The position numbers and the translations under genes are program-made. From Nemertoderma westbladi (lineage: Eukaryota; Animalia; Xenacoelomorpha), in assembly GCA_032718475.1 (NCBI GenBank), contig JAUCBJ010006780.1:52590-116589 (forward strand): 64,000 nt of DNA, in the 5' to 3' direction. Below the pieces are notes generated by a model. It saw only the letters and a program-made list of their open reading frames with translations, was not told where the DNA came from and made no database searches. Shown piece after piece: positions 11,791 to 58,892 of this stretch. Every line of letters starts with the position of its first letter. The stretch's first letter is position 1.

Positions 11791-14002
11791 TGTTACGGTA
11801 TATGGCGCTGTATCCACATTATTAGTCGTTATACTGTATGCATTATTAGTCCGTTATGCAGTATGCAATATTAGTCCGTTATACTGTACGTAATATTAGT
11901 CCATTGTGCAGCATGGTATTTTAGATAAGGCATAATAACGCAGTGGTATTTAGATAGGGAAATCGAAACACCCATATATTTGAATCCATCCATTTTGTAT
12001 AGTATGTAGCCCTACCTACGTAATTTTGTATTAGGATATATGTAGATAGTTCCAGGGTAGCGAGTTTATTCGGACCCTGGATTTTGTGCTTGCTGATATT
12101 AGCATCGATAGGGCTAGCATATAGGGACGCTGTCCTGGCCATTCAGCAGCCAGGGACGTGAACCATTACCATATATGGTAATAATTTGAGGTTTGGGCAA
12201 GCGATAGGGCTACAATCCGGCCTCCTTATTGGACTAACTGCTTCCAGGTTGGTCTAATGCTAGCACGGACTGGAGAGCCAATAGGAGAGCGATTGAGTCA
12301 CCCTATTGCATCACCCCATCCGGATCACCTATAAATTGGCGGTGTGCCGGTAGAGCCTCACATGACACCTCACATGATCTGCTATCACCTTTGTACTTGT
12401 TGAGCTGTCTCTATTCAATTTTGACGGATATTTTAGCGTATTTTCTGCAATTTGCTAATTTTGATTAATTTCTTGGAATGATTTGCTAGTGCGATTACTC
12501 TCGATTGTGTTTCTCAATTAATTCCTTCAATTACTGCTAATTACAACTGAACTATGATTTCTACTTTTTGATTAATGGTTCTATGTGATTCCTTTCTGCG
12601 CAATAATCCTAAGGGATTTCTGAGACTGTCAGACTTTGTGATTTGCATGCGCCGCTACGGTAGCTATTAGCATAATGGAGGGCTAAGGTGCCAGTGGGCG
12701 GTGGGCACATCGGGAGGTTGAGCGACTAGGAGAGAGCGGAGGATTCAAGGCGGGCAACGCTGGCTAGGGTCACCGTTGCGGGCGGGTATCTTGCACTGTA
12801 ACACGCAGACCATTCGCCGATACAGTAACTAGGGGGCTGATGATCCAGATTTTGTCTCTATTTAGTATTAGGGGGGCAGGAATCGGGTTAGTTAGGAATC
12901 CTAGATGTATTCGGGAGAGGCCTGCGCGTACTACAACGTTGAGTGTAGAGTACGAGTAGTGAATCGCATAATTGTGGGCTATACAGTAGTTAACTGCATA
13001 ATTGCGAACTGTGATTGCTGACGCTGATTGGTGTGTTATTGAAGTGTGCCTATGATTATGAATGTTTAGGTAGGCGCCCTTTTCTTTTGATTGATTTCTA
13101 TTTCTTAGTTACAATAATTAGTTACTGATTAGGTCAAAGTAATACGGCAATTTAGGCTATTACTAGCGAAACCTGTTGCGTAATAAATTAGAATTACGTA
13201 TTCTGGAACTCTTAGTAATTAGTACGCTGTTAAATATTTGTGACTGTAATTGATTAGTAAAAATTAAGAATTAGTACGCAGCATAGCGGAGAGTAGCTAA
13301 GGTAATAATTAGAGTACTGTAAACTATTCACGCTGAGCGGTTATTTGCATTAGCGGGCAATCAGCTAGATCGCACTATTCGGTACGCACGATACGCTAGT
13401 AATTTGCTGGCCTAAAGCCAGCCGCAGGCAAGTTTCGACCCAGAGTGGTACTATCCACGTAGAAACAATTACTGTATCATTTTGATTATTTTAAATATTC
13501 TCGCATTCACACATTACGTTAGGGAACCTCCAGTATTCGCGATTAGAAAGACGTAGACAATAGCGTGTTTTAATAGTGATAGAATTAGGCGTAAGAATAC
13601 TCTGAGTGCAAGGCCTCTCGTACTCGTCTTAAGTAAGCTTAGGGAGCCGACTCGGGTTTATTGTTTTGGTTATTCCCGCGTGGCTCATAGATTCGAACAG
13701 TTAGCTCTCTATCGAGCGATCGGTAGAGAAAGGAACAAGCGATTTTGCAGGAGTTGTGTAAAATTAGTAAAATATATTAGCGGACGGCAGATTAGCGCCA
13801 TCCAACGGTAAGTAGCGGTTTTGTATTTAGCCACCTTTACAATTTAGTAATATCACGCTCCTGATCCCCTTTACTTAACAGTAGAGCATTCTTTGTGTCT
13901 TATTGGTTAGGCGAGAGCTCATTAGGTTGACAGAAGGATATTAACGGGTATTGGTCTGTTCAACAGTTCTGCTGTTAGTATAGAGGTCGCGGTTGTTTAT
14001 CA
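11791..14002 (+). repeat. 5' LTR of Bel/Pao copy 1
   Basis: TGTTACGG...GTTTATCA; only about five substitutions seen by eye versus 29667-31878. Confidence 0.95.
12228..12335 (+). promoter_or_regulatory. LTR promoter: CCAAT boxes and TATA box
   Basis: ATTGG 12228-12232, CCAAT 12278-12282 and TATAAA 12330-12335, conserved in all four LTR copies. AATAAA at 13182-13187 is a candidate poly(A) signal. Confidence 0.55.
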
Positions 14003-15185: not shown

Positions 15186-18100
15186 ATGAGTGTCTCAGAC
15201 AAAGAGGCACTAGAGGACAGCTATGAAACGGCGGCTGGACCGCCGACTGACGATAGCGTAAACATTACTGTTGATGACAATGCCGACTATGACGACGCAG
15301 CGAGCGACGCTGACGTAAGTGAACAGGAGGATGAGACAGTGACTAGTGAGGAAGAACAACAACCTCAAGTAATAGTATTAGGATCCCTTACCGCTACTGA
15401 TAGGAAGGACTGTACGGCAGCCCGGACAGAGGTGAGTGATAGGGAGGGTAGTGTAGCAGAAGCGAGAGCCCGGAGCCCGGTTTCCAGACCTGTGGGTATG
15501 GTAAGTGCCGTGGTCCCAACGGCTGTAAGGAGTACCCGTAGTTCCCGAAATAATCCTTCAAGTCCACCGAGTGTGAGTCAGGTAAGCGAGAGAGAACTAG
15601 ACATTGCGATAAAGAAGAAACTTCGCGCGCATGCCGGACATATAACTCGGACGGTGGACAAGGTAAGGAAGATGTTAGCTGACTCAGCGAACATCGGGAG
15701 GGTAGAGTTAGTAGAGATTAGAAGAGGATATAACTCAGCGTTATTCAAGCAGACGGAGGAGCTTGCAGTCCTAGCGAAGAAGGCAGTAGAGTCTCAGTCG
15801 AGCGACATGGCGACGAGGATTTACGACAGGGTTTTAGCAGCCTTGTTGGAGCACCGCGAGTTATCGGAGCGATTCCGACGAGTTAGGACGGAGAACTGGC
15901 TGCTATGGGCATCACAAGCGCAGGCGACTCAAGTGAGTGATGCAGAGTTGAGAGAGTTAGTGGAGCGAGAAGAGATCCAAGACAAGGAGGAGCGCAGTTA
16001 TCAAAGGGAAGTTACTAGCTGGCTGATGCAGAATGGAGTGGTGGTACCACGCCAGGTGCTACCGACGACGGAGAACATCCAACAGAGGACGTTGACTCCA
16101 CCCGACGACGCATCTAGAGACAGCGGCGATTCCCAGGTTAGTCACGCGCGAGGTAAGGTAATATGTGCTAGATCCCTTGTTTCGCACAACTCGGCGGAGG
16201 AGAGAAGACGCCGACTGGACGAACAGCAGGCGGAAGTTTTGCGTGCATCGGAAGCACGGAAGGAAGCCGAGCGGGAACGGGAGCGAACACGTAAGTTAGA
16301 CGCGAAGTTGCGCGAATTGGAAGAGAAAGGTAAGCGTGAGCGAGCGGAACGCGAGCAGAAGGAACGTGAACTTCAACTTGAACGCGAACGCAAGGAACGC
16401 GAACTCGAACTTGAACGCGAGCAGAAAGAACGCGAACTCCAGCTCGAACGCGAACGCAAAGAACGCGAACTCCAGCTCGAACGCGAACAGAAGAAACGCG
16501 AACTCGAACTTGAACGCGAACGCAAGGAACGCGAACTCGAGATCGAGAAAGAGCGACAAGCGTTGTATGAAGAAAGGGCGCGTGTGGAAGAAGAGGGCGC
16601 AGCGAGACGAGCGAGGGAAGAAGAAGAACGTAAACTGGCGCAGTTGGAAAGTGCGAGATTAAGTTTAGAGAGCGAAGAACGGACTAGGAAGGCGAATGAA
16701 ATCGCCGAGAAGGGGATGCGAATGATCAAAGAATGTGGGGCGAGTGTAGGGACTGAGTTGCGAGAACTGTTCGCACTGCAGAAGGCCAAACAGGAAGCGA
16801 GAACTCCGACTATACGCGAGTCGACGACGACCAGAATTCCTATACCCGGTCCAGCTATTACGAGTACACGGATCGCTAAACCGTTCTCTACATATCGCAC
16901 GCCAGTTGGTATTAGTGCTTCACCCATCGCCCAGGATCTACGTCATCGGAACACCGCACCACTATATACCGAACGCGACAACGGAGAGTTTAGAGAAACT
17001 CCGACAGGACGAGTACTTGGCGAACCGAACCCGCGGGTTTGGAATACACGGACGGAGCGCCGACCCTGTTCGACGGAGAACTTCTGGGTTAAACCGGAAG
17101 AGGGATCATATGAGAGACAGCGGATTACTCAGATAGAGCCGACTATACAACAGAACCCTAGCCAGGAATTTATTACGAGAGATGAGTTAAGTGCTAGTTT
17201 AGCGCAAGCTATATCGCCGCACATCCAACCTATAACGGACATGCTTAGCAACCTACGGTTAAAGGAAGCAGCCCAGGTAAGAAGTAATTCAAATCCCAGC
17301 AGGCCTGAATTAGATAAAGTCCAGCCTAGTCAACGAGTACGTATATCGGAGGAGACTATACCACATAGACCTCAGGTAAGGACGCCTGATCCCTGACGCC
17401 ATAATCCCAATTTCGAAAATTCGGCGGAAAGATTTATTGAGGAAGCTTGGGTCAGGGCCTCGGCGCGCAAACCATCGCGAGCGCTAAGGACTGACACCGA
17501 GTCAAGCGATGAAGAGGAAGAAATGAGACGTCAGAAGTCCCGAAACTATAAGGAAAGAAGGACCGACGCGGAGCAGGTAAGTTGGAACCACCGGGAAAGG
17601 ACCAGACTTAACAACCCTGCGGAACTAAACCATTTGTTAACCCGGAACGACGCAACCCTTAGAGACATAGGTAAGTTTGCTGCTAGGCAAGGACTGCCGA
17701 CGCAACAACCCCAGAAGTTTATGGGCAACCACAAGCACTGGAGGACGTTTAAAACCTATGTCGACGAGCAGCTAACCAACAGCACCTTTACTCCCAACGA
17801 GAAGTTCAACTATTTGCTTCAGATGCTCCATCGAGAACCTAGAGCCATTGCTGATAACTTCGTCGGCAATGAACGGGCATTCGAATTAGCGATGAAGACG
17901 CTTAGCGACATCTACGGGAATAAAACGAAGATGGCGCAGTCGATAGTAGAAGACTTGGGTAAGGGCGGAAGGATTACAACTCCGTTAGAGCTGTTGAACT
18001 TAGCGAACGCTATTTCGAACGCATTGGACATCTTGAGGACGGTGAATCTACCTCATCATGGTGATCACGCCGAAGTTTTAAAGAGCGTAATAAGACGTTT

Positions 18101-21100
18101 AAACATGCGTTATCGACAGAAATGGCGCAAATTAGAGAATAAGTTGGAGGGCCAAGGTAAGGTATTGACACTTCAGCATATTCATGACATGATAGCCACA
18201 GACGCAGTAGCAGAGATGAAATCAAACTTCTCAGAGGAGAACATGAGGGAGTCTAAACCTGTTATCGGTAAGTCTATGGTAAGATGACAGGACCACTGTG
18301 ACATTTAACTCAGTAGACAGATATAATTCGAGTACCCCAGCCTTTAGATCAGACTCGCGAGTATGGTCAGGTGAGCGGTTAGATAGACCTAGGTTAAAGC
18401 AACAGGAGTTGCCGGATGGATTTGTAGGTTGCCAATACTGTTTACTAAAGGAGGTAAGATCTGACGACCATAAGTTAGATAGTTGCAGACGGTTCAAAGA
18501 ATTAAATTCGGAACAGAGAAGAGTTCAAGTGCGGACGTTGGCCACCTGTTGGGCATGTCTTGCGCCAGGACATGTACGGCGGCAGTGCCCGAACAGCAAG
18601 GACGGATGCATGGAATGCGGCAGACTACATCACAAGTTGCTACATGCGGATTTCCACACCCCAACGGACCGTTACTTACAGCGAAATCCTCACAGGAAGG
18701 GGAGCAAAGAACCCGTATTGATAAGGAGGAATACGTACACCGGCATTCAGGACGATGGTTACCAACCAGGTTCGTCGGACGAGGATGGCGAGTCGAGCGC
18801 GAGAGAAGTGACCTGCCAAGGTTTCACCGCGGATAGTTCATCGACCAGCGCGCGGACGTATTTATCATCGGCCACGTCGGAAATATTCAGCGTAATTCCG
18901 GTGAAACTCACTGGCGATAAGGGATCGAAGCGAATATATGTGATGTTGGACACTGCGTCCACATTATCATATATCGACGAGGAAGTGGCGAGAGCCGTTT
19001 CTAGCTTCCAGGACGCCGAGGAGATCCAAATAGAGTTGAAGTCTATGCACGGGGTAGGAGACCTCAAGGGACACAGAATTTCGGTGGAACTAGACTCCCT
19101 ACTTCCGAGAGACCAACACACTCGACAAGAACGGAAAGCTTTGCCATTGGACGGATTTAAGTGTCTAGCTATGAAGGGATTCGGCAGGCAGTTAGGTAAG
19201 GTGCCGCCGATGAGTCCCATAGCACAGGAGTATTTTGACAAGCTCAGGATACCCAGACACCAGGTAGGTTATAGGAATGTTTCTATGTTGATTGGTGCAG
19301 AACAGCTGATCGCACACCAAATATGGGAAACGAGACCAGCTGAGCCGCATGTCAATGGACCACATGCCCATAGGACCATACTAGGTTGGTATACACGAGT
19401 ACCCATGTCTTATGAGTTTACAGGTGGCGACAAGCCAATAAACAGATACGACGAATTACAGCCTATAATTCAACCACCGTTAGTAGAACCACCAGACATA
19501 GACGAGTTTAGGAGAACCTGTATTGACCACTATAGTGACTTTAGCGAGTCGGACGAGGAGTTGATTCCCGATAATGTTAGGTTGTCGGAACCACTTCATA
19601 ACGACCAGACAGATAGTGAACCCGAGGACTACTGTTATCAGACCCGTGGGTCTGGTTCAGCGGCCCACGCTACCTATTTGACTAATGTTTTGACTTATAC
19701 AGACATAGTGGAGGGTCAAGTGGCTAAATATCGAGACCTAGACATTTTCCAATACAGTGAGGAGGAATTACAGAAGGAATTGATACGCCAGGACCTCGAG
19801 ACAGGAGCCAGAACCGTCGAATGGCTGGATAGGGACGCAATGGAACCCGGTGGATATGACCTAGCCATGTCTACTGATGAGAAACGGTCGCTGGAGATGA
19901 TGGAAGATACCATACGTCTGCTACCGACTGGACATTTTGAAGTTGGAATGTTGTGGCGTCGACAACCACCTAAGTTGGAGAACAACTACAACTTAGCCTT
20001 GAAAAGATTAAACGGAGTAAGGGCTCGGTTGTTGAAGAATCCGGACATTAGGGAGAAGTATTGCGCCCAGATCAACAACTATTTCGCCAAGGGATTTGCT
20101 GGGAAGGTAGAGGACCCTGACTTAGTGACAGACCAGACTTATTACCCTCCACACCACTATGTGACTCACCCTGACAAGCCAGACAAAGTCCGAGTAGTCA
20201 ACGACTGCGCAGCAGTCTATAGAGGTATGTCCCTGAATTCAGAGTTGATGGATGGTCCCAACCTGAACAACTATTTGATTGGAATACTGTTGCGTTTTAG
20301 ACAGCGGCGATTCGCATTTACTTGTGACATCGAGGCGATGTTCCACCAGGTAAGAGCCTGTAAGGCAGACCAGGATAGCCTTCGCTTTCTCTGGCACGAG
20401 AATGAAGACTTATCCGGCCCAGTGGTTACATACCAAATGTACGTAAGGATATTTGGCGCCCGCGATAGTCCGAATGGCACGCTGTTCGTTTTAAAGAAAA
20501 CGGCAACAGCCCAAATTGGTAAGTACCCAGTAGAAGTAATCGAGTCCATCTTGAGAAACTTCTACATGGACGACGGATTGGTGTCCAAGGACACAGCGGA
20601 ACAAGCCATAGAAGTGGCTCACGGCCTGCAAGAGTGCTTGGCTACAGGGGGATTTCCTCTAACCAAGTTCACTACGAACTCGGAGGCCCTATTAGAATCG
20701 TTCCCGGTGAAAGATCGCGGGAGCGGAGACATAGAATTGGGGGTAGAACCAATCCCCATGGCGCGAGTACTGGGACTCGCTTGGAACCCGAACTCAGATA
20801 AGTTCCAGGTAAGAGTTAGATTTGAGCCCAGTAGCCCAGACAAAGTTTTGACAAATAGGATTTGCTTATCGACATTAAGTAGACTATTTGACCCGATGAA
20901 TTTTATCAGTCCGGTTATATTACAGGCACGAGCGTGCATGAGGAAAATTTGGTTGTCCGACTTAGAGTGGGACGAACCGATATCTCCTATACATGCAAAG
21001 CAGTGGAGGGAGTGGGAAGCCGAGTTACATCTATTGAAAAACATAGACGTACCCCGTTCCTACTTTCCGAATCAGCTGGTATTTCCAGCTGATCTCGAAC

Positions 21101-23538
21101 TGCATTTGTTCAGTGACGCAAGTGACACCGGCTTTGGTATGGTAGCCTACCTTCGCCGAGAGGTAAGTCAGGACAAGTTTGAGACGGCCTTTGTAACTTC
21201 TAGATCAAAGACAATGCCGGTAAAATACATGACTGTCCCTCGTGCAGAGTTACAGGCGGCTGTAGTTTCGGTCGAGGTAAGTAAGCAGATAATTGAGGAG
21301 TTAGACACGACATTGACCTTATTCTATTGGACGGACGCATCCTTGGTGTTAGTATACATTGCGGCCGACAATATTGCACTAAAGACATTTGTGGCCAATA
21401 GACGCGCTCAGATCGTCGACTTTTCGACGAAGGAACAATGGAGACATTGTCCGGGAGTGTTGAACCCGGCCGACATAACTTCGAGAGGTGCAATGCCGGC
21501 GGAATTCTGTCAGGAAGAGTCGCAGGAGTTTTGGTTGCATGGACCTGATTTTCTAACGAGGACCCAGGAACATTGGCCAGAGCGACTAAAGATTGTGACC
21601 AATCCGATGCCTGAAGATGCAGAAGTCAAGGTGGAGAAAGTCTCTAAGTCGAAGTCTAAAGCCAAACTCAAGTCATTGGAGCGGCCTGAAGAGTCATTGG
21701 AGCGGCCTGAAGAGTCATTGGAGCGGCCCGGAGACCTGTCAGACCAACAGACTTACGTGACTACTAGGTCCGGAAGGGTAAGTTACGACGTAAAACCACC
21801 CTTACAGACTAAACCGGAGTCACAATTGGTAAGTGACGGACAGAAAATGACCGACACAATGGAGTCTTTGGTTTCCAAACCTGCGGGTTTGGATTCGAAA
21901 CTTCCATTAATTAGCGGACAACCGTCGCTGGCATTAGAGTCATGCAGTATTTATGACAAATTACTAAATTCGTCTGCCTCTTGGCTGACAATTTGTAAAA
22001 GAACTGCGTGGTTAAGCCGATACATTTTGTACCTTTGTTTAAAACATTCGAAACATTTGAGAGAACCATTGAGCACCAATAGTGAGCGAATTCGGAAATT
22101 GAAACAACCTCTGACAAAGGATGAGATTGATCAAGCGGAATTAAAGCATTTGAAACATTATCAAGTGTGTGCCTTCCCAAAGGAATTCCATCTATTATCG
22201 GCTCAACGACCAGTTCTCTATAAACCCCTTAGAAAATGGAGTCCATTAATCCATAAGGGTTTAATTTGTCATAGATCGAGAATCCAGACTGTCGACATAA
22301 ACTCACAGTTTCGGTTCCCAGTGATAATCCCTAGTCACCCAATAGAATTGCAAAGAGCGATTCTATGGGATATACACAAGAGGTTGCATCACGCGGGAAA
22401 GTTACACTGTCTGTCGGCAGCGAGACAGCGATTCATTCTATTGCAGCCAAGCAGGGCAGTCGGCACTATGTATGACGCCTGTCTGGTTTGCAAGAGGGTG
22501 AACGCCAGAGTATTGGAACAGGAGATGGCTGAACTCCCGGAAGCGAGAGTGCAGGCATATGACCCACCCTTTACGAACACAGGGGTGGATTGTTTTGGTC
22601 CGATTGAAGCAAAGAGTGGACGGCTGACCCACAAGCGATGGGGTCTGCTACTGATATGCATGGCTAGTAGAGCCATACACATTGAGCGTGTGGCAGACAT
22701 GTCGACCAAATCTCTGCTCCTGGCCTTAAAGAGATTTATGGCCAGGAGAGGACTAGTAAAGGCGTTCTACTCTGATAAGGGTACAAACTTTGTCGGAGGG
22801 AATAGCGAGTTGAACGCGGCTCATAAAGCGGCACAGAATAAAGAAATTTCTGCAGCACTTTTGCCGCAAAGAGTAGAGTGGAGATTCAATACTCCAGAAA
22901 GTCCTTGGAGAGGAGGAAGTTGGGAGAGTTTAGTTCGCTCTGTAAAGCAGGCCATTGCCAAGACGTTGCCTGTAAACAAACAACTTACCGACGACGAACT
23001 GGTCACAGCTTTCATTGAAATCGAGCATACCCTAAACTCGAGGCCGATAGCTATGTTGCCAGACGGTGTTGCATTAACGCCGAATCATTTGCTAATGCAG
23101 AGTCCAGCATTTCTTGTGCCGGCATCAGAACCCGTTAGTGCCGACCTATATAGTCGTAAGAGCTGGAAAATGACTCAATTAGTCGCGTACACATTCTGGG
23201 AATATTGGCGGGAATACTATCTTCCCACCATATCCACCAGAACAAAGTGGTACAAAACGGTTCGGAGTCTCCAAAGGGGAGATTACGTACTGATAACCGA
23301 GCCGATTGTCAAGAGAAAGTATTGGGAGACTGGAGTGATCTTGCACACACACCCAGAAGTGCAAAACATAGTGCGCACAGTCACTGTGAAAATTAGGTGC
23401 AAGTGTCCGCACCCAAAAAAGTGTAAAACTAATGGTTTACACACCTTGGACCGACCGGTCCAAGATATTGTGTTATTAGAGGAGACACGTATCGAGACGG
23501 GAGATTATAATTTGTCTCCTGCCTCTAAACTGAATTAG
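15186..23538 (+). pseudogene. gag-pol: Bel/Pao gag-pol polyprotein, disrupted (ancestrally one ORF of ~2790 codons)
   Basis: E/R/K coiled coil; Pao-type gag core (FMGNHKHWRTF...EKFNYL); Cys/His knuckles (CWACLAPGHVRRQC, CMECGRLHHKLLH); protease MLDTAST; RT CDIEAMFHQV and FYMDD; RNase H LHLFSDAS, VPRAELQAA, WTDAS; integrase HKRLHH..CLVC, GVDCFGP, SDKGTNF, GGSWE. Lesions relative to copy 2: TGA at 17394-17396 and an 8-bp deletion at ~18283. Confidence 0.95.
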
Positions 23539-24304
23539 TGTTGGGCGCAACTCACTTCGTATGCATTCCTCGTATGCAAATACAAGGAAATGCATAGGAG
23601 CGGGGTTGTGGTGATTTGCGTTGAGTTTTGTCTAGTGGGTATCAAAACAAAATTTTATTCTCAAAATTTTTGGAAAAAATTAAAATTTTAAAAAATTAGA
23701 AGTGAACCCAAGACAATTCCAGACGCTGTGTATAGACGCATTTTGAATTCGTCTATAGATAAACAGTAATTTGAAAAGTCGTGAAGCCTGGAAAATAGCA
23801 TTTAGAAACCATGGTGACGGCTATATTACGTAGGAGTGTAAATTGAGTTTAGCAACTTCCACAGATTGGTGCCAACAGTGCAACTAAGGTGCTAAAGGTT
23901 AGTAGCACTAGAGGCGTACATGGACCCCACTCAGTAGTTTGCAGGATGTGTGATGTTCGATTATCAAACCTGTGGGTTTGGTATAGTCGAGTATTGTGGC
24001 TATAGTCCTTTCTAACTACTGTAGTTTAGTACGAGTAATGGGAGTAGTTTGGGCATCAAAAAGTGAGTTGGTCACGGCCAGTTTATCACCAAAGTTTTTG
24101 CGCTATGCATGGGAATAGGTTAGAGGATAGTTAGTTAGGAAGAGACGGGATCTAGAGAGTCGAACCTGAACTGCTGGAAGGCGGGGGGGGGGGTTCGGGA
24201 GGTCTGTCCTTCGGCGACATCTAACTGATTTACCCACAGTGTAATTGGTTACGTAACGGCACTTATTGGGATATATATATATATATGTATATACGCGAGG
24301 CATA

Positions 24305-27300
24305 ATGGAGAGGGATATTAGAGCGCAACCGCGCAGAGGATTTACTGCCAGAGAGGAGGCGGAGCTACCATTCGCGCGACCAGGATGTAAAGACTCTAAC
24401 GTTTACTACCATGGGCGGTCCGTGATGGAGCTAAACGGGAAATACAAGCCGAGTTATGATAAAGAATTACGGAGGGAAAGAATGAGAGCGTTGGGGGACC
24501 GGATGGAAGTTTTGCGGAGAGAGTATCGCACGCGGTATCCCTACGACTTCGCTTTGGACGAATGTGACATTAGCGCAGATCCGGACGAGGAAATCGCACG
24601 ACTATACCATATGAATATGTATTTACGACACGAGGAGCCTCTACCTGCAGTCCGAGATCAGTTCGACGGAATGCATCTGTACCGGAGGACTCGAGGTGAG
24701 GATCAGGAGACGCCGAAAGTCTTCAGCGTGTACAAGCTGTTCTACAAGTGTGGTGAATGCATGAATAAGCAGGACGTGGCGATTCCCGACCGATTAGATG
24801 AGCAACATCCAGAACCGATATTAACGCGATGTCCAGCTCACCAATTCCTTAGATACAACGAGGGAGGTTACCCGATGAGCAACCCGATGATCAGTATCGA
24901 CTTCAGCGGAAAGCGACCTCCGAGACCCATTACGCCGACCGTTACGACATTAGATCCGTATACGGAGATTAAACCCTGTTCGACACCCAGTTTGATAGAG
25001 ACGGCAGCGGCCATTTCGCTGTACCGAGCCTACAAGGATCTAGAGGCGCGGCGCGAAGCGGCGCGGGACTCGGGTACCAAACCCGCGGGTTTGGAGCTCT
25101 CGAGTCCCTGGACTGCGTTTACTTCACCTCACCGAGTGAGAAGCCTCACGCCTGAGCATCAGGACGACATAGACGCGTTGCGGCAGGAGGAGCGAGCGGC
25201 GAAGGCGAAAGAGTTATTTGAGAACAGGATAGCGGAGTATAATAAGACCGCGGATAGACATCAAGAGGAGACGAGGAGAGTGACCGGATTTGTTCCACAG
25301 GTCGTATCTCAACCCGGACCGGTGTATTATTCCGACGGCACCGAACCTGCGATATTAGTAGATCATCCGGAGTCGCGAGAAGCGATACGATTCTTGCCGA
25401 TGGTAAGGATGGCGGACCATTGGAACGTTGACTGTCTACGGGAAGTTTTATGCGCGAAGTTCTTGCGTGATGTCCCAATGCAGATCACAGATTACGACAC
25501 GTTGGATAAGATTGGAGCTCCGGGGAAGGAGAGTAAGCTATTCGGATGGTTGGATAAGTACATCAAGGTATGGGTCGCGGTGGCTACATTCCCAGATGAC
25601 GAGGAGGTAGACCAGACGTGGCTGAGGAGGAAGGGTTCTTATACCCGATATGATGACCACAAGGCTATCGAGCGCATGTGGACCCCATCAGACGAGATTC
25701 AGCGTCAGTGGAGGAAAACGGAGGAATCACTGCAGGATTGGAGGGTGATGTTCTACGACAATGAAGGAGGGTCCCATCAGGAATGTTTGACCAGCAAGTG
25801 TATTCAAATTCGTGCGGCCGATGGTGTGACTCATGTGTTTATGCGTGTGAGGGCGGATCAAGAGAGACCGGAGCCCATCATAACGACACAATATCGGAAG
25901 GGGAAGGATCCTAGGGAACAGATTTTGGAGGTATGCAGGCGAGGAGGTATGCACGGAGCGGAGCGTATCGACGCCAGGATGTTACCCAAGAAAGTTAGAG
26001 AGGCTATTCTCAACCAAGATTACGTCAAGGTGGGATCGGGAGTCCAGAGCGATTTGGAGAGTGACTTCAACGCCATGACTGATCTGGAAGATAGATTGCC
26101 GAGACCGTTTGTCGACACCAAGCTATTGTTGCTATGGGCACAGGATATTGGAATTTATAGGGAGTATCCCAACTCTGCCAAGACTGGTATGGGCTTTATA
26201 GCACACTTGTTGTATAATTGGGACTTTAAGTTAAAGACGCAGAAGAAGTACGAGGAGGCGTATGGCGAATACAACACGCCACCGGGAGCGGAGTTCAAAT
26301 CCCACTTCAAGCGGCAAGCGTTAGTGTATTGGAACATTTGCGCACCACCCCGTGCGTCGCTACAATATTATTTGGTGCTTGAGTCGAACACGGTGACTTG
26401 TTTATTAGCGGATATCGTTGCGCGAGTTTTGAAGCGTCATCCATTGGTATTCGGAGGAGATCAATACGTTCGCTCGAAAGGGGGAATCCAATCCGACGTG
26501 ATGAAGCGTTTCTTAACCCCGTTCTTCAACCAATCGTTAGAGAATACGTCGATGGTTAGGAGAGGATTAGCGATATTCGAAGGAGTATATCGACAGAACA
26601 TCGGAGATTTGGGAGACCGACCGTCGATGGAATATCCGACGCCAGAAGCTTTGGAGAAGTGGTTCGGGAATCAAACCCGCGGGTTTGGTACTCCCTTCCA
26701 CTCGGAGGCTGATAGACCTGTTAAGGAGGGCTGGCCGGAGACGTTAGTAGAGGTGTTCGGAGTAGATCTTCCGGTGGAGAAGACATATCCGAAACGAACG
26801 CGGGAGGAAATATTGGAGATAGAGGACAAGGGCGAGGATGTTTACTTTGTTCCGGATCGACAACCGTTGACCGGAGAGGACGACATCGTATTAGACATTG
26901 GGAAGGAAGGAAGTGCAAAACCGATTGGAGACCTCATATACGAGAGGGCCTGGTTTCCACAAGCGCGTAGGTGCAAATTGTGCGGCAGCACAAGGCACAA
27001 TCTAAAGTCGTGCGACGCGGTAGTAGAGGCGGCGCATAAGGTCTGTCGTTGGTGTAATGAGACCGACCATTCGTTTCACACGTGCACCGTCTTCATTTCT
27101 CAATGTGGATATTGTGGGGTAAAGGGACATCGTAGCGTGAGATGTCAGCTGCGAGATGATTCCTTTCAAAACCATAGCGCTAACCTACTTCGGGAGATGT
27201 TAGATAAGTGGGAGGGTGTGGCCGATTACCATATTCAAGCGCAGATGCGTTGGTTACCATTTAAAGCGGGATATGGGTTTTGGGCGGTAGACCCATCGCA

Positions 27301-27763
27301 TGTTGCGTACGAGCCATATCTACAATCGCTACCACAATATCAGGAGCTCATCCTAACTGCTCAAGACCTTCCACAGAACACTGGAGTTATCGTAGTCCGA
27401 GAATACTTCAGACAATTGAACATGGACAATAAGTACACATGGAACTTCGTTGCTATTTGCGATCGCATCACGAAGGGTGTATTTACGGAGACTAGAAAGG
27501 TGGTACGCGCACGAGGTGATTGGAGGATGGCGGCTATACAATACCGCAACGAATTCTTGTTGACTCATGTGCCAGTGGGTTCATTGACCGCTGAGAGGAT
27601 ACAGGAGCAAAGGATCGCAGCGACCACAGCGACGACCGCTGGAGCTCAAAGCTCGCGGAAAGAACCAGGAGGAGAGGTCCAAGACAAGCATCAAGTCAAG
27701 GACGACCACTACCACTCTATTATAGAAGCACAGAGGTTACCTAAAGAGGTGAGGTCTCTATAG
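24305..27763 (+). CDS. Accessory ORF3 of the Bel/Pao element: unknown protein with three CCHC zinc knuckles; C-terminus displaced by an extra segment
   Basis: Open frame of ~1150 codons from ATG 24305 (same start as copy 2 at 58893). CKLCGSTRHNLKSC, CRWCNETDHSFHTC and CGYCGVKGHRSVRC are CX2CX4HX4C. No signal peptide or TM segment is evident. The C-terminus seen in copy 2 resumes at 28897-29170. Confidence 0.85.
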   Translation: MERDIRAQPRRGFTAREEAELPFARPGCKDSNVYYHGRSVMELNGKYKPSYDKELRRERMRALGDRMEVLRREYRTRYPYDFALDECDISADPDEEIARLYHMNMYLRHEEPLPAVRDQFDGMHLYRRTRGEDQETPKVFSVYKLFYKCGECMNKQDVAIPDRLDEQHPEPILTRCPAHQFLRYNEGGYPMSNPMISIDFSGKRPPRPITPTVTTLDPYTEIKPCSTPSLIETAAAISLYRAYKDLEARREAARDSGTKPAGLELSSPWTAFTSPHRVRSLTPEHQDDIDALRQEERAAKAKELFENRIAEYNKTADRHQEETRRVTGFVPQVVSQPGPVYYSDGTEPAILVDHPESREAIRFLPMVRMADHWNVDCLREVLCAKFLRDVPMQITDYDTLDKIGAPGKESKLFGWLDKYIKVWVAVATFPDDEEVDQTWLRRKGSYTRYDDHKAIERMWTPSDEIQRQWRKTEESLQDWRVMFYDNEGGSHQECLTSKCIQIRAADGVTHVFMRVRADQERPEPIITTQYRKGKDPREQILEVCRRGGMHGAERIDARMLPKKVREAILNQDYVKVGSGVQSDLESDFNAMTDLEDRLPRPFVDTKLLLLWAQDIGIYREYPNSAKTGMGFIAHLLYNWDFKLKTQKKYEEAYGEYNTPPGAEFKSHFKRQALVYWNICAPPRASLQYYLVLESNTVTCLLADIVARVLKRHPLVFGGDQYVRSKGGIQSDVMKRFLTPFFNQSLENTSMVRRGLAIFEGVYRQNIGDLGDRPSMEYPTPEALEKWFGNQTRGFGTPFHSEADRPVKEGWPETLVEVFGVDLPVEKTYPKRTREEILEIEDKGEDVYFVPDRQPLTGEDDIVLDIGKEGSAKPIGDLIYERAWFPQARRCKLCGSTRHNLKSCDAVVEAAHKVCRWCNETDHSFHTCTVFISQCGYCGVKGHRSVRCQLRDDSFQNHSANLLREMLDKWEGVADYHIQAQMRWLPFKAGYGFWAVDPSHVAYEPYLQSLPQYQELILTAQDLPQNTGVIVVREYFRQLNMDNKYTWNFVAICDRITKGVFTETRKVVRARGDWRMAAIQYRNEFLLTHVPVGSLTAERIQEQRIAATTATTAGAQSSRKEPGGEVQDKHQVKDDHYHSIIEAQRLPKEVRSL

Positions 27764-28896
27764 GGGTGACCTTAACAGGCGGCGGCGGACTCGCGAGGGT
27801 CTGGGGGCACGTTAAACAAGTGCTTAAAGTGCAAGGGAGATACTGATGGCCCTCGTGTCTAGCGAACCATGAATTGCCATGGTGCCGTGGTACCGTCTAG
27901 TCGGCATGTTGCCGTACTGCCAGTCCTGTACACAGTAGGGGTGGTGGCATGGCGTGATTTGTGGTTCATGTGGTGTGAACTGTGATTTGTATGTGGGCGA
28001 TCAGTGGCAGTTGCTTGGGGCTCGGATGGGTTCCTTTGGCTATCAGCTGTTCCGTTTTTTTGATACTATATGTTATTGTCTCCATGTTCAGCTGATTGGT
28101 TTTTGGGATTTGTTTGGGCCTTTGAGTTTTCTGTTGCTGTGGGTACGTGAGTACACGTGATTGTATGTATGGCCACTGCGAGTGAGTGTGGGAAACCTTG
28201 CCAGTTGGCTCAGTCGCCGCTGGTATTAGTAGGACCATATTTTACTGCGCCCTAGCATACTTTGTGCACACAAAGTTATTTTGCCCTGACGGCAAAATAA
28301 GGTACTCTCGACTCTCATGTTCTCTCTAGTCGATACAACTAGTCCCTCCCGATTTTGACCCCGATTTTGTCTTTACCGATTATGTCCTCTGTGTGTGCAT
28401 GGTATGTGTCCAATTTGTGTACTTGATATTGTGAACATCTGTTGAGTACACATGTACAGTGACTGGTAAGTGGTTACTTGTTCAGTAGCTTTTGAGCTAC
28501 AGACAGTATTGTTTCTTCAATACTGCCGGCGAGGCAGGTGAAAATGAGTCAAAATTCCATGTTGGGTAGCGCAAGCCCACATGGGACAAGGCCGTCGGTT
28601 AGGCCCAAGGGCGACCTTGGTGCTCGATCGCTATCGACTGGTCCACCTGCCGGTTGACTCTCTGAGTTGGCTCAATGTACAGTCAGGCCACAGTAAGTTG
28701 ACAGTAGCCGCCCATCTGGCTACACGTTCGACGAGCTGTGCCGGTGTGATCGGGGAATTGAAAATTGAACCCGGGAAGCATCGGGCCATCCCCCGGCCCG
28801 TCTGATAATAACATCTGTCGGACTGGCCCCAGGGGTGGTGGAAAAGTGTCCGCCTCGTGGGTGCGCCTCGGGGAGGAGCCCAGAAGGATGTAAGCG
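27739..28896. other. 1158-bp segment present in ORF3 of copy 1 but absent from copy 2
   Basis: Copy 2 reads CAGAGGTT|GCAGCGCAAGG contiguously and in frame (~60314); copy 1 has this segment between the two halves. No TSD or TIR seen. Confidence 0.8.
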
Positions 28897-29666
28897 GCAG
28901 CGCAAGGCGCAGGGGGCGTCGGAGAAGGCGCGAGTGCAACTGCATAAGGAAGAGTTGGCGGAAGCGACCACGGGAGCGCGACAATTGGGACAAGGCCGAG
29001 GAAGAAGCACAAGCCGGGAGTCTGTCGGGGCTCAGGGAACGTCGTCGCCGGTTCCGGGGAGTGATGCCTCACGGACGCCGTCAACGGAGTCGACTAGAGG
29101 ACGACTGGTGTATCTGGGAAGAGGGCGAAAGAGAGGAGCGAGCCCAAAGAACCCAGGAGCGGGTCGATAATACATTATAGCACAGGGCGACAGACTCTAG
29201 ATATATACATCATCGTCGCTCTGATGTATATTGTAGCATTTGGAAATCTTCGACTAGACTCATATACACTAGTTGAGTTATTTTGGAATTTATATTATGA
29301 GAGAGGCGAAGGAAGTGATTGGGGAGACAAACCTGCGGGTTTGGCTTACTCCTTTCACTTGCCCTAGCCAATTTTTATATTTGATTTTGTATGTAGTAAT
29401 CATTATGTAGTAAGAATGAACGAGAAACAATATTTTGTAAATTTAATTTGTATGTAATAATCGTTAAACAATGAGAGAGATAATATTTTTGTAAATTTAA
29501 TTTGTATGCAATTCATTATGCAATATCTATAGCAATATTTGTAAATAGTAGGATTTATAGTATCAAGTGTTTAGATTGGTTGGAAGAAATTTATTTTGTT
29601 TTGTATACATCACCTTATACTCTTCTACAATTGGAGGGAAACATTGTATGATTTCCCTTGGAGCGG

Positions 29667-31878
29667 TGTTACGGTATATGGCGCTGTATCCACATTATTA
29701 GTCGTTATACTGTATGCATTATTAGTCCGTTATGCAGTATGCAATATTAGTCCGTTATACTGTACGTAATATTAGTCCATTGTGCAGCATGATATTTTAG
29801 ATAAGGCATAATAACGCAGTGGTATTTAGATAGGGAAATCGAAACACCCATATATTTGAATCCATCCATTTTGTATAGTATGTAGCCCTACCTACGTAAT
29901 TTTGTATTAGGATATATGTAGATAGTTCCAGGGTAGCGAGTTTATTCGGACCCTGGATTTTGTGCTTGCTGATATTAGCATCGATAGGGCTAGCATATAG
30001 GGATGCTGTCCTGGCCATTCAGCAGCCAGGGACGTGAACCATTACCATATATGGTAATAATTTGAGGTTTGGGCAAGCGATAGGGCTACAATCCGGCCTC
30101 CTTATTGGACTAACTGCTTCCAGGTTGGTCTAATGCTAGCACGGACTGGAGAGCCAATAGGAGAGCGATTGAGTCACCCTATTGCATCACCCCATCCGGA
30201 TCACCTATAAATTGGCGGTGTGCCGGTAGAGCCTCACATGACACCTCACATGATCTGCTATCACCTTTGTACTTGTTGAGCTGTCTCTATTCAATTTTGA
30301 CGGATATTTTAGCGTATTTTCTGCAATTTGCTAATTTTGATTAATTTCTTGGAATGATTTGCTAGTGCGATTACTCTCGATTGTGTTTCTCAATTAATTC
30401 CTTCGATTACTGCTAATTACAACTGAACTATGATTTCTACTTTTTGATTAATGGTTCTATGTGATTCCTTTCTGCGCAATAATCCTAAGGGATTTCTGAG
30501 ACTGTCAGACTTTGTGATTTGCATGCGCCGCTACGGTAGCTATTAGCATAATGGAGGGCTAAGGTGCCAGTGGGCGGTGGGCACATCGGGGGGTTGAGCG
30601 ACTAGGAGAGAGCGGAGGATTCAAGGCGGGCAACGCTGGCTAGGGTCACCGTTGCGGGCGGGTATCTTGCACTGTAACACGCAGACCATTCGCCGATACA
30701 GTAACTAGGGGGCTGATGATCCAGATTTTGTCTCTATTTAGTATTAGGGGGGCAGGAATCGGGTTAGTTAGGAATCCTAGATGTATTCGGGAGAGGCCTG
30801 CGCGTACTACAACGTTGAGTGTAGAGTACGAGTAGTGAATCGCATAATTGTGGGCTATACAGTAGTTAACTGCATAATTGCGAACTGTGATTGCTGACGC
30901 TGATTGGTGTGTTATTGAAGTGTGCCTATGATTATGAATGTTTAGGTAGGCGCCCTTTTCTTTTGATTGATTTCTATTTCTTAGTTACAATAATTAGTTA
31001 CTGATTAGGTCAAAGTAATACGGCAATTTAGGCTATTACTAGCGAAACCTGTTGCGTAATAAATTAGAATTACGTATTCTGGAACTCTTAGTAATTAGTA
31101 CGCTGCTAAATATTTGTGACTGTAATTGATTAGTAAAAATTAAGAATTAGTACGCAGCATAGCGGAGAGTAGCTAAGGTAATAATTAGAGTACTGTAAAC
31201 TATTCACGCTGAGCGGTTATTTGCATTAGCGGGCAATCAGCTAGATCGCACTATTCGGTACGCACGATACGCTAGTAATTTGCTGGCCTAAAGCCAGCCG
31301 CAGGCAAGTTTCGACCCAGAGTGGTACTATCCACGTAGAAACAATTACTGTATCATTTTGATTATTTTAAATATTCTCGCATTCACACATTACGTTAGGG
31401 AACCTCCAGTATTCGCGATTAGAAAGACGTAGACAATAGCGTGTTTTAATAGTGATAGAATTAGGCGTAAGAATACTCTGAGTGCAAGGCCTCTCGTACT
31501 CGTCTTAAGTAAGCTTAGGGAGCCGACTCGGGTTTATTGTTTTGGTTATTCCCGCGTGGCTCATAGATTCGAACAGTTAGCTCTCTATCGAGCGATCGGT
31601 AGAGAAAGGAACAAGCGATTTTGCAGGAGTTGTGTAAAATTAGTAAAATATATTAGCGGACGGCAGATTAGCGCCATCCAACGGTAAGTAGCGGTTTTGT
31701 ATTTAGCCACCTTTACAATTTAGTAATATCACGCTCCTGATCCCCTTTACTTAACAGTAGAGCATTCTTTGTGTCTTATTGGTTAGGCGAGAGCTCATTA
31801 GGTTGACAGAAGGATATTAACGGGTATTGGTCTGTTCAACAGTTCTGCTGTTAGTATAGAGGTCGCGGTTGTTTATCA
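29667..31878 (+). repeat. 3' LTR of Bel/Pao copy 1
   Basis: Direct repeat of 11791-14002; preceded by a short purine-rich tract GGAGCGG; followed by TSD TCTTT. Confidence 0.95.
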
Positions 31879-38021: not shown

Positions 38022-38194
38022 ATATCCGTATCAGGTATCAGCAAATAGTTTACAGGTTCAGGTTTATTACGATATTAATTGCCGATATTATTTTTTAAGG
38101 TAATAAAGTGCGGTAGCAATTGAAGAGTTGTAAGTTAGGCCGAGTACAAAGTGCAGTACTGCTGTACTGCATGGGCCAGTAGGTAAGTACTGAA

Positions 38195-44088: not shown

Positions 44089-46271
44089 TGTTACGGTATA
44101 TGGCGCTGTATCCACATATATTAGTCCGTTATACTGTACGCAATATTAGTCCGTTATACTGTATGTAATATTAGTCCGTTGTGCAGCATAATATTTTAGA
44201 TAAGATATAATAGCGAGGTGATATTTAGATAGGGAAACCAAAACGCCCATATATTTGAATCCATCCATTTTGTATAATATGTAGCCCTACCTACGTAATT
44301 TTGTATTAGGATATATGTAGATAGTTCCAGGGTAGCAAGTTTAGTCGGACCCTGGATTTCGTGCTTGCTGATATTAGCTTCAATAGGGCTAGCATATAGG
44401 GACGCTGTCCTGGCCATTCAGCAGCCAGGGACATGATCCATTACCATATATGGTAATAATTTGAGGTTTGGGCAGCAATAGGGCTACAATCCGGCCTCCT
44501 TATTGGACTAACTGCTTCCAGCTTGGTCTAATGCTAGCGCGGACTGGAGAGCCAATAGGAGAGCGATTGAGTCACCCTATTGCATCACCCCATCCGGATC
44601 ACCTATAAATTGGCGGTTTGCCGGTAGAGCTGTATCTATACCTTACAATCCACACCCTTGTACTTGCTGAGCTGTCCCTATTCACCTTTTGACGGATATT
44701 TTAGCGTATTTCTGCAATTTGCTATTTTCGATTAATTTCTCAAAATGATTTGCTAGTGCGATTATTCTTGATTGTGTTTCTCAATTAATCCCATCGATTA
44801 CTGCTAATTACAACTGGAACTATGATTTCTACCTTTTGTTAATGGTTCTATGTGATTCCTTTCTACGCAATAATCCTAAGGGATTTCTGAGACTGTCAGA
44901 CTTTGTGATTTGCATGCGCCGCTACGGTAGCTATTAGCATAATGGAGGGCTAAGGTGCCAGTGGGCGGTGGGCACATCGGGGGGTTGAGCGACTAAGGGA
45001 GAGCGGAGGATTCAAAAGCGAGCAACGCTGGCGGGGGGTCACCGTTGCGGTCGGGTAGTTCACGCTGTGGTATGCAGACCATTCGCCGGTACAGTAATTA
45101 GGGGGCTGATGATCCAGGTTTCGTCTCTATTTAGTATTAGGGGGGCGGAATCAGGTTAGTTAGGAGTCCTATATGTACCCGGGAGAGGCCTGCACGTATC
45201 ACAACGTGGAGTGTGAAGTACGAATAGTGAGTCGCATAACTGTGGGCTATACAGTAGTTAACTGCATAATTGCGAACTGTGATTGCTGACGCTGATTGGT
45301 GTGTTATTGAAGTGTGCCTACGATTGTGAATGTTTAGGTAGGCGCCCCTTTTTCTTTGATTGATTTCTATTTCTTAGTTACAACAATTAGTTACTGATTA
45401 GGTCAAAGTAATACGGTAATTTAGGCAATTACTAGCGAAACCTGTTGCGTAATAAATTAGAATTACGCATTCTGGAACTCTTAGTAATTAGTACGCTGTT
45501 ACATATTTGTGACTGTAATTGATTAGTAAAAATTAAGAATTAGTACGCAGCATAGCGGAGAGTAGCTAAGGTAATAATTAGAGTACTGTAAACTATTCAC
45601 GCTGAGCGGTTATTTGCATTGGCAAGCAATCAGCTAGATCGCACTATTCGGTACACACAACACGCTAGTAATTTGCTGGCCTAAAGCCAGCTGCAGGCAA
45701 GTTTAGACCCAGAGCGGTACTACCCACGTAGAGACAAATACTGTACCATTTTGATAATTTTAAATATTCTCGCATTCACACATACGATAGGGAACCCCCA
45801 GTATTCGCGATTAGAAAAGACATAGGCAATAGCGTGCTTTAATAGTGATAGAATTAGGCGTAAGAATACTCTGAGTGCAAAGCCTCTCGCACTCGTCTTA
45901 AGTAAGCTTAGGGAGCCGACTCGGGTTTATTATTTTGGTTATTCCCGCATGGCTCATAGATTCGAACAGTTAGCTCTCTATCGAGCGATCGGTAGAGAAA
46001 GGAACAAGCGATTTTGCAGGAGCTGTGTAAATTTAGTAAATTATATTAGCGGACGGCAGATTAGCGCCATCTGACGGTAAGTAGCGGTTTTGTATTTAGC
46101 AACCTTTACAATTTAGTAATATCACGCTCCTGATCCCCTTTACTTAACAGTAGAGCAGTCTTTGTGTCTTATTGGTTAGGCGAGAGCTCATTAGGTTGGC
46201 AGAAGGATATTAACGGGTATTTGTCTGTTCAACAGTTCTGCTGTTAGTATAGAGGTCGCGGTTGTTTATCA
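44089..46271 (+). repeat. 5' LTR of Bel/Pao copy 2
   Basis: TGTTACGG...GTTTATCA, 2183 bp; nearly identical to 61064-62948 and clearly diverged from the copy 1 LTRs. Confidence 0.93.
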
Positions 46272-46433
46272 GTGATACGTGTTTTGTTTGCTGTAGGCTG
46301 TAGCGTACAGTAAATAGAGTACCGGTATTCTTAGGCTGTTAGTTTAGATTACTGATACTTCGTATCAGTGATACGTGTTATTGGCTGTTGCTTGCAGCGG
46401 TCAATAGTGTATTCTTAGGCTGTTAGTAGTATC

Positions 46434-48730: not shown

Positions 48731-48778
48731 GTATTAAGTAATAAATTAGAGCACGTGATCGTCTGCTGTAGGCTATAG
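46823..48778 (+). pseudogene. Copia/GalEa-like gag-protease-integrase, truncated inside the integrase core
   Basis: Knuckle CRCCGSFRHLIKDC; protease VLDSACTSTVCG; integrase IHRQFAH...CDVC and IAIDLK follow the protease directly (Copia order); the last ~15 codons are read from Bel/Pao leader DNA. Confidence 0.85.
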
Positions 48779-49849
48779 GCTAGCGTACAGTAAGACATTG
48801 AGTATATTCTTTTAGGCTGTTAGTTTAGATTACTGTATTCACTGGCTGCGTACAATAGTACAGTAGTACATTAGGCTGATTGCTGTTACTGCGTACGGTA
48901 GAAAGGACATTTGTTTTGCTGTACCACATACAGTATTCTTTAGGCTGTTAGGTTGGTGTACTGTTTTACTTACTGTACTGCATACAGTGGATGTACGGTA
49001 GTGCGTTTTTGCTAATTGCGAATACAGCAGTTCCTTAGGCCTTAGGGCAAATTGTAATTAGTAAGTGTTTTGAAAATTTTAGCTAGGTTTGCGAGAATTC
49101 AGTTTCGGTCAAAATTATTTTGTAAAATTCTAGAGTTTTGTACCGGTATGTTAGGTAACCGCTTAGTTATTTTATACCATCTGGAGATACATGGCAAGAC
49201 GGAACTTCTGAGTTTGGGGTTCGTGTGGGTCTGCGGGTTCGGTTTGCAATCAGCAAAGGGCCTGAATCTTTGGACGCGGACGTGGAATCTCACAGCAAAC
49301 AAGGTTAGTTGTTCTGTTGGCACCATTGTGTTTGTGGAAGCAGTAAAAAATTATCGGTTGTTTAACTGCGAAGCTGAACTCAATTTATTAGTTAGGATAT
49401 TTAGGTTTAGCCGGCCATGGTTTTTTGAATCGCTCAAGTTAGAGAGAGAGTTAGAGAGAGTCGCAACCCGAAGATGTAGCCACGCGCTAGTGGATACATA
49501 TAATATTTGAAATTAAAATTACGTTGATTAGAGCTATATATAAAATTAGAAATATTCGGGTGGCAAGTATATTTTGAATATTTTGTATTAGATTCAAAGT
49601 TATTTTGTGCTATACCGGTATTTAATACTATATAGTAGCTATATAATAATATTTTTGTTTAAATATTGTGCTAGTATTTGCTATAACTATATACCCCATT
49701 AAATTCACAATATTGCATTGCGAATTTATTTTGACATTTTGGACCAACTGATTATTTGACAAATAATTTGACCGTATTTCGGTTAAATTATAATTATATC
49801 TCGAACCTTTGCGAGATATTTTTGCCGGAAGGCAAACATTATTTAGACT

Positions 49850-58134: not shown

Positions 58135-58892
58135 TGTTGGACGCAACTCACTTCGTATGCATTCCTCGTATGCAGATACAAGGAAATGCATATGAGCGGG
58201 GTTGTGGTGATTTGCGTTGAGTTTTGTCTGGTGGGTATCAAAACAAAATTTTATTTTCAAAATTTTTGGAAAATTAGAAAATTTTAAAAAATTAGAAGTG
58301 AACCCAAGACAATTCCAGACGCTGTGTATAGACACGTTTTAGAATTCGTCTATAGATAAACAGTAATTTGAAAAGTCGTGAAGCCTGGAAAATAGCATTT
58401 AGAAACCATGGTGACGGCTATATTACGTAGGAGTGGAAATTGAGTTTAGCAACTTCCACAGATTGGTGCCAACAGTGCAACTAAGGTGCTAAAGGTTAGT
58501 AGCACCAGAGGCGTACATGGACCCCACTCAGTAGTTCGCAGGATGTGTGATATTCGATTATCAAACCTGTGGGTTTGGTATAGTCGAGTATTGTGGCTAT
58601 GGTCCTTTCTAACTACTGTAGTTTAGTACGAGTAATGGGAGTAGTTTGGGCATCAAAAAGTGAGTTGGTCACGGCCAGTTTATCTCCAAAGTTTTGCGCT
58701 ATGCATGGGAATAGGTTAGAGGATAGTTAGTTAGGAAGAGACGGGATCTAGAGAGTCGAACCTGAACTGCTGGAAGGCGGGGGGGTTCGGGAGGTCTGTC
58801 TTTCGGCGACATCTAACTGATTTACCCACAGTGTAATTGGTTACGTAACGGCACTTATTGGGATATATATATATGTATATACGCGAGGCATA

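Follow-up and report, generated by a model that had tools for sequence, protein, structure and literature searches.

The DNA analyzed here is a window of 64,000 nucleotides (nt) from the Nemertoderma westbladi contig JAUCBJ010006780.1, in which two copies of a long terminal repeat (LTR) retrotransposon assigned to the BEL/Pao group were located. Copy 1 is 20.1 kb in length and spans 11791-31878 on the plus strand. Its LTRs are 2212 bp each, 99.77% identical and delimited by TG..CA ends, and the 5-bp target duplication TCTTT is present on both sides of the element. Between the LTRs, eight copies of one predicted 18-nt hairpin are distributed through the internal region (14003-29666), and none are found in the LTRs themselves. 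These hairpins are a real and selected feature of the sense RNA strand of the element, and may be binding sites for a protein that the element itself encodes. Coordinates of both copies and of the hairpins are given in Table 1.

Sequence, spacing and conservation of the hairpins

The consensus of the eight sites is Y-C-R-R-A-C-C / YGYG / G-G-T-H-T-G-G, with an A at the first position in site 8. All eight loops follow the rule YGYG, in which G is fixed at positions 2 and 4 while positions 1 and 3 hold C or U. A first-pass annotation of this stretch had reported six of the hairpins, all of which were recovered where it had placed them, and had missed those at 15484 and 19638. It had also noted, correctly, that the coding sites cover all three codon phases (QTRGS/QTRGF, RPVGM/KPAGL, NPRVW). 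Its assignment of the loops to the UNCG/YNMG class was not retained. A YNMG tetraloop is defined as Y-N-M-G closed by C-G, a description that fits five loops (CGCG three times, UGCG twice) and excludes the two UGUG loops and the single CGUG loop.

With the rest of the window as control, the LTRs, a gypsy-like element and the flanking DNA contained no copy of the motif. Outside both copies the window holds a single CC-YGYG-GG core (37435), which lacks the ACC/GGT stem; frequency outside the element, which the annotation had named as a check, thus came to no copy with a stem in this control. A ninth ACC-N4-GGT hairpin is located near the end of pol (23445-23464) and is kept in copy 2, with the loop GACC and a different outer stem. 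Because it breaks both the YGYG rule and the outer stem, this hairpin, at 23450, was omitted from all counts. Rfam 15 covariance models gave no match at E values up to 5 across 11700-32000. A 17-nt pattern of the motif searched in viral contigs hit 32 loci with one match each, none of them with a pol or ORF3 relative, and these were taken as chance. Identities with the Roquin constitutive decay element, the Smaug recognition element, the iron-responsive element and RUNX/GCM sites were rejected for misfit of register in a by-eye comparison of the patterns.

Counted on both strands with up to two mismatches, the motif has 26 matches, whereas dinucleotide shuffles, the comparison that the annotation had called for, give 0.05 on average and never more than 2. 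Among repeated 8-10-mers of the internal region it ranks first. When synonymous codons were shuffled 2000 times with the encoded peptides preserved, the motif occurred with a mean of 0.018 and a maximum of 1, compared with 6 observed in open reading frames (ORFs). The gaps between successive hairpins are 1541, 2613, 2237, 2089, 1113, 1594 and 2656 nt (mean 1978, coefficient of variation (CV) 0.29). This spacing is more even than chance in 100,000 uniform placements (P=0.0017 for the CV, P=0.0015 for the largest gap), in which the end sites were fixed and six were placed randomly, the motif having been defined beforehand and the test chosen after the spacing was seen. The even spacing had been overlooked in the first-pass annotation, as had the two further sites and the nature of ORF3 described below.

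Over the eight sites there are 72 palindrome pair positions, of which 59 are Watson-Crick, 11 are G-U, none are A-C and 2 are mismatches; the 56 stem-only positions include four G-U and no A-C pairs. G-U pairing is available to the plus strand only, which indicates that the constraint acts on this strand in single-stranded form, most simply as RNA, and the sense orientation emphasized in the annotation is borne out. The predicted fold consists of a 7-bp stem with the YGYG loop, often above a bulged lower stem. Core pairing predicted in 316-nt windows has a probability of 0.89-1.0 at every site except site 1 (0.16); in 70-nt windows site 1 reaches 0.91, while site 2 is weak (0.12, compared with 1.0 in the 316-nt window). 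Lower stems vary in sequence between sites. The longer stems that had been claimed for several sites are modestly better than shuffled flanks when summed over all eight (P=0.021), but individually P falls below 0.05 at only two (21876, 25078) and is 0.39-0.9 at 15485, 17026, 19639 and 29328.

All seven 18-mers common to both copies are identical, whereas 4.9 changes would be expected from the local synonymous and non-synonymous rates (P=0.007), in what is a single comparison of two copies. Together with the peptide-preserving shuffles, this upholds the constraint at nucleotide level that the annotation had proposed. Five unchanged sites had been listed for copy 2; these are unchanged over the 18-nt core, yet the number kept is seven, the eighth lying in a deletion. 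A copy 2 difference in the lower stem of hairpin 5 converts G-U to A-U.

Population variation was readable at one of the eight sites, hairpin 8, for which contigs of four public runs were aligned to 29255-29425; summed contig depth in these data does not equal copy number. Six substitutions at 1% or more were present in this interval, of which only A29314G (7-9% of depth, two runs) lies within 29298-29360, where it changes a lower-stem A-U to G-U. The other five, and all 12 of the indels listed (of 13), fall just outside at 29275-29288 and 29368-29375. Element-wide, 1121 substitution rows at 10% or more over 15,698 bases predict about 4.5 per 63 bases, and 29298-29360 shows none. The 40 rows listed of these 1121 included none in a hairpin core against 0.4 expected, which is uninformative. 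In all four runs some contigs match 29298-29360 only, with three differences and unlike flanks, from which it appears that related sequences keep hairpin 8 while their surroundings diverge. Downstream, the 3' non-coding region contains AT-rich repeated blocks (29376-29560), of which 29376-29425 may be a further conserved signal.

Searches of viral contigs with the RT (reverse transcriptase) region gave 0 loci, none of 11 stretches from a search of metagenome contigs with ORF3 were confirmed, and patterns of the ORF3 family were confirmed in 0 of 25 cases in viral contigs and 0 of 215 in metagenome contigs. No DNA of a full-length relative turned up in these viral and metagenome searches.

Table 1. 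Positions of the retrotransposon copies and of their hairpins in the window
Feature	Position	Strand	Remarks
5' LTR of copy 1	11791..14002	+	2.2 kb, hairpin-free; candidate TATA 12330, AATAAA 13182, candidate splice donor 13807 (consensus only)
gag region	15186..18287	+	Coiled-coil N-terminus, DUF1759 (PF03564 E 1.7e-10)
Gag C-terminal Cys/His knuckle cluster (18430-18660), then BEL/Pao pol region	18283..23538	+	
ORF3	24305..27763	+	1152 aa; candidate splice acceptor 24239 (sequence only)
3' LTR of copy 1	29667..31878	+	AATAAA 31058
Hairpin 1	15484..15501	+	Loop UGUG; one G-A stem mismatch; weakest copy
Hairpin 2	17025..17042	+	Loop CGCG; one G-U in stem; in gag
Hairpin 3	19638..19655	+	Loop CGUG; two-sided A-U to G-C stem change; pol linker
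Hairpin 4	21875..21892	+	Loop UGCG; pol linker upstream of integrase domain
Hairpin 5	23964..23981	+	Loop UGUG; between pol and ORF3
Hairpin 6	25077..25094	+	Loop CGCG; on 10-bp lower stem; in ORF3
Hairpin 7	26671..26688	+	Loop CGCG; in ORF3, between exonuclease domain and knuckles; deleted in copy 2
Hairpin 8	29327..29344	+	Loop UGCG; 3' non-coding region
Copy 2, same family	44089..62948	+	96.6% identical to copy 1 over 8.8 kb
Copy 2 hairpins (n=7)	Starts 50148, 51614, 54235, 56471, 58561, 59665, 60744	+	

The BEL/Pao element and its ORF3

The element is assigned to BEL/Pao because it combines paired LTRs with a Pao-type domain set, found with Pfam in the order DUF1759, Peptidase_A17, Integrase_H2C2, DUF5641. 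Within the pol region the order is RT region, Peptidase_A17, integrase and DUF5641 (PF05380 E 3e-38, PF18701 E 7e-17, PF17921 E 4e-5). The closest pol proteins are only about 40% identical, and all 120 relatives listed carry PF05380. In copy 1, gag contains an in-frame stop (17394-17396) and a frame change near 18283. Copy 2 has an unrelated element inserted in its leader and a frame change in pol, and lacks copy-1 positions 25217-27225 and 27739-28896; gag-pol is broken in both copies. Synonymous divergence between the copies is 0.08-0.13, with dN/dS of about 0.1 in pol and ORF3. Three public runs also contain the 27739-28896 deletion of copy 2, with junctions of several kinds, and a deleted subfamily therefore appears to have spread. 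The inserted sequence in the leader of copy 2 (46430-48730) carries a truncated unrelated gag-protease-integrase ORF (46805-48778).

A full-length RNA of about 18.7 kb is predicted from the TATA word at 12330 to the AATAAA at 31058. The consensus splice donor inside the LTR (13807) and a branch-point-like CTAAC followed by an AG acceptor (24219-24239), which lies 65 nt ahead of the ORF3 ATG, hint at a spliced mRNA for ORF3 that joins 13807 to 24239. Directly after the 5' LTR (14003-14030), where the bases differ between copies, there is no TGG-type primer-binding site, and the purine tract ahead of the 3' LTR (29640-29666) is short; priming of the element may be unusual. In gag-pol (15500-21833) the donor-like word GGTAAG is found 22 times, compared with 5.5 expected from codon shuffles (z 8.2, the top-ranked hexamer). 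These words are found in two codon phases on the sense strand only and once in ORF3, and copy 2 has 21 of them. As a second dispersed signal, these words may recruit U1 small nuclear ribonucleoprotein and thereby guard the long transcript.

No Pfam match was obtained in ORF3, and word-index protein searches with ORF3 and its family alignment returned nothing at near lengths. A HMMER search over 1.84 billion representatives identified seven relatives at E values of 2e-10 to 2e-4. ORF3 and these proteins (P0121-P0127, 19-22% identical) make up a small family in which a DEDDy domain, three CCHC knuckles and a conserved C-terminal extension are combined. Conversely, when a profile built only from the seven relatives was run against the 667 frames of the window, ORF3 was recovered in two stretches (E 9e-37) and no other frame matched. 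Profiles that include ORF3 match EXD2 (E 6.7e-7), WRN, the Lin28 knuckle domain, which is the best among knuckles (E 3.5e-6), and retroviral knuckles. In an atlas, three DNA_pol_A_exo1 clusters were returned for ORF3 at 0.78-0.86, a lead only. Foldseek on a low-confidence ORF3 model (predicted local distance difference test (pLDDT) 45) ranked EXD2 first, followed by NrnC, Egalitarian(-BicD), Nibbler and WRN.

From these profiles and the low-confidence model, an RNase H-like fold with ExoI, ExoII and ExoIII motifs is recognized in ORF3, the exonuclease residues being D485, E487, D583 and Y689-x3-E693. At the final acidic position ORF3 has E (E693), like the relative P0122. Three CCHC knuckles are encoded at 26972-27145, and all domain assignments lie beyond the first 470 aa. 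By its profile matches, then, ORF3 is a DEDDy-type (EXD2/WRN-like) exonuclease domain joined to three CCHC knuckles, with putative nuclease activity. It is under purifying selection, with dN/dS of about 0.1 between the copies.

Candidate readers of the hairpins

The element encodes two knuckle clusters, one in Gag and one in ORF3, and the loop form with G at positions 2 and 4 suits zinc-knuckle proteins. The first-pass annotation had put forward Gag or ORF3 as possible readers, for packaging, export or dimerization. Among the explanations considered we lean, tentatively, towards the hairpins as evenly spaced putative sites for the Gag zinc knuckles, through which the predicted 18.7-kb RNA would be gathered and packaged. 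The two fixed loop guanines would enter the knuckle pockets in the manner of HIV-1 nucleocapsid (NC) with SL2 and SL3, or of Rous sarcoma virus (RSV) NC with its UGCG loop. With a strong site in every 2 kb, Gag would be nucleated throughout the length of the RNA rather than from a single 5' signal. We infer every step from fold to function.

Parallels with retroviruses lie in the loop more than in the layout. In the GGUG and GGAG tetraloops of SL2 and SL3, the guanines bound by HIV-1 NC are those at positions 2 and 4 (PMC7599994), and RSV NC binds G in the UGCG tetraloop of SL-C (PMC5035970). These are tetraloop hairpins with exposed guanines, as here, and the RSV loop is the same as that of hairpins 4 and 8 (PMC5035970). 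Guanines at loop positions 2 and 4 above a stable stem, as in packaging hairpins, are present at all eight sites of the predicted fold. Retroviral NC hairpins are single, unlike one another and clustered in the 5' leader, whereas here one sequence occurs eight times at steps of about 2 kb across gag, pol, ORF3 and non-coding DNA, and some 3.1 kb separate the first copy from where the RNA is predicted to start. The RNA of the LTR retrotransposons Ty1 and Ty3 is likewise selected by their own Gag, whose binding sites in it are not precisely defined, and scattered sites are suspected of contributing (PMC4974528). However, the Ty1/Ty3 signals that have been mapped are no more than a few hundred bases away from the RNA ends, the interior tolerates deletion of up to 5 kb, and that source, as accessible, describes no repeated motif (PMC4974528).

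Dispersed packaging signals are known from small RNA viruses, in that MS2 and satellite tobacco necrosis virus carry many similar stem-loops across the genome which are read by the structural protein. We regard these as the closest concept to the array. The viral sets are loose and degenerate and belong to small genomes, while the sites here are near-identical 18-mers in a reverse-transcribing element.

Several observations weigh against packaging by Gag. In RSV, replacing UGCG by GAGA left specific recognition by Gag undiminished in vitro, and altering two nucleotides of the loop had no effect on packaging (PMC5035970). The position is unlike that of a retroviral packaging signal, with no copy in the leader and three of the eight hairpins downstream of the candidate acceptor at 24239. 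The spliced ORF3 RNA that we infer (13807-24239) would therefore retain these three, which a strict genome-selection signal should avoid. The YGYG rule also preserves mutual complementarity of all sites, so that pairing explains it equally well. Single hairpins are dispensable, as copy 2 lacks hairpin 7, and two of 15 joints listed (of 110) skip hairpin 6 or 7. Conservation was judged from two copies in one genome, a single comparison, and the low variation around hairpin 8 is not unique to it, in that 29376-29425 is also free of listed substitutions in the four runs.

In a successful 20-kb element, the array offers a candidate code that is countable, defined by sequence and evenly spaced. Size limits on retrotransposons, near 10 kb, include the making, copying and packaging of a long RNA (PMC6431247), and the predicted RNA is nearly twice that usual limit. 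With the array, the DEDDy ORF3 proteins of retrotransposons, so far unexplained, also gain a first candidate for their substrate. In a literature search of titles and abstract starts, with most subscription journals and Repbase outside its scope, no hairpin array and no BEL/Pao DEDDy ORF3 were found.

The three hairpins on the predicted spliced ORF3 mRNA would be accounted for if ORF3 rather than Gag were the reader, which we consider possible but rather improbable. Lin28-like knuckles would bind the YGYGG loop, and the DEDDy domain would either grip the stem without cutting, like Egalitarian, or trim the RNA, the hairpins serving as a self tag by which every RNA of the element, spliced or not, is protected, marked or transported. 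Purifying selection on ORF3 is in keeping with this, as are the profile matches to EXD2 and the Lin28 knuckle domain and the Foldseek hits on the low-confidence model, Egalitarian-BicD among them. YGYGG fits the Lin28 consensus NGNNG (PMC11011352), although that is a loose pattern. Weakly in the same direction, no motif-encoded pentapeptide was seen among 128 proteins, 120 of them distant pol relatives, where about two would be expected by a rough estimate. On the other hand, copy 2 keeps seven sites despite having lost most of ORF3, though the protein could come from other copies. Egalitarian (Egl) is a DEDDy-fold protein that binds bulged stem-loops of 40-65 nt, known from the K10 TLS (transport/localization sequence) and from a retrotransposon, the I factor, with two elements per transcript recognized together (bioRxiv 10.1101/2025.08.03.668247). 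It is a host protein, however, that reads shape, does not contact the loop and recognizes signals sharing little sequence with one another, while the motif here is fixed (bioRxiv 10.1101/2025.08.03.668247). ORF3 itself is nearer to EXD2 than to Egl, by profile and by Foldseek on the low-confidence model. An extra third ORF with a DEDDy-type exonuclease of unproven function is likewise found in the bdelloid Juno and Vesta LTR retrotransposons and in Terminons, which are retrovirus-like and Penelope-like elements of rotifers, not BEL/Pao (PMC5408684, PMC6431247); the main text on the rotifer elements contains none of the words 'CCHC', 'hairpin' or 'stem-loop' (PMC5408684). With similarly low probability, this giant BEL/Pao lineage would encode both a barcode and its reader, namely a spaced hairpin tag on all transcripts and a captured DEDDy-plus-knuckle ORF3. 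ORF3 would then shield, trim or ferry self RNA as an element-encoded counterpart of Egalitarian or Lin28, and barcode and reader together would lift the size limit on retrotransposon RNA.

Pairing between RNAs, about as doubtful as a reader in ORF3, would have kissing loops convert to duplexes of 16-18 bp that zip two genomic RNAs together or fold one back on itself. Each site is a near-palindrome, and whichever of C and U fills loop positions 1 and 3, pairing with G across the duplex is preserved. Computed energies of inter-site duplexes are -16 to -36 kcal/mol, and at all eight sites the self-duplex is predicted to be more stable than two hairpins, giving the self-complementary extended duplex of a dimerization palindrome. 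In Moloney murine leukemia virus, SL-D kisses through only two G-C pairs (PMC7599994). Identical sites would nevertheless pair out of register, giving no alignment, and stable local hairpins pose a kinetic barrier; moreover any palindrome would suffice, so that one fixed sequence would be unnecessary. The fixed 3' G and the CC/GG core suggest a reader. A host RNA-binding protein that serves nuclear export, stability or germ-line transport of the long unspliced RNA is unlikely. Even spacing per unit length would suit coating for export, and the RNA seems to bear dispersed processing signals besides the hairpins, given the 22 GGTAAG words in gag-pol (5.5 expected); yet Rfam gave no match up to the threshold used, the motif is not in the host DNA of the window, and no candidate host protein was identified. 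Less likely again are sites in double-stranded DNA, as palindromes for a dimeric factor, or an action on single-stranded cDNA. A perfect 16-bp palindrome is present at two cores, several sites have minus-strand folds that match the plus-strand folds in stability, and an asymmetric G-rich site could account for part of the bias. The departures from pairing, 11 G-U and no A-C, favor the plus single strand all the same, and symmetric CpG decay would yield TG and CA alike, whereas A occurs at none of the 16 loop G positions; the hairpin-free LTR promoter and the two-sided stem change at site 3 also argue against DNA sites. Coding sites do lie in linker-like stretches that could tolerate insertions, but chance, or descent of the sites from a small insertion sequence as neutral relics, is very improbable and largely refuted by the shuffle tests, the even spacing, the restriction to a single strand, the unrelated flanks of each site and conservation above the synonymous rate.

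Other repeats in the window

Between the two copies, an element of the Ty3/gypsy type with RT and RNase H lies on the minus strand (33747-38314) between identical 111-bp direct repeats and is hairpin-free. Tandem arrays are present with units of 45 bp (86 copies, 38518-42418), 146 bp (two blocks, 3955-8846) and 358 bp (61-1144).

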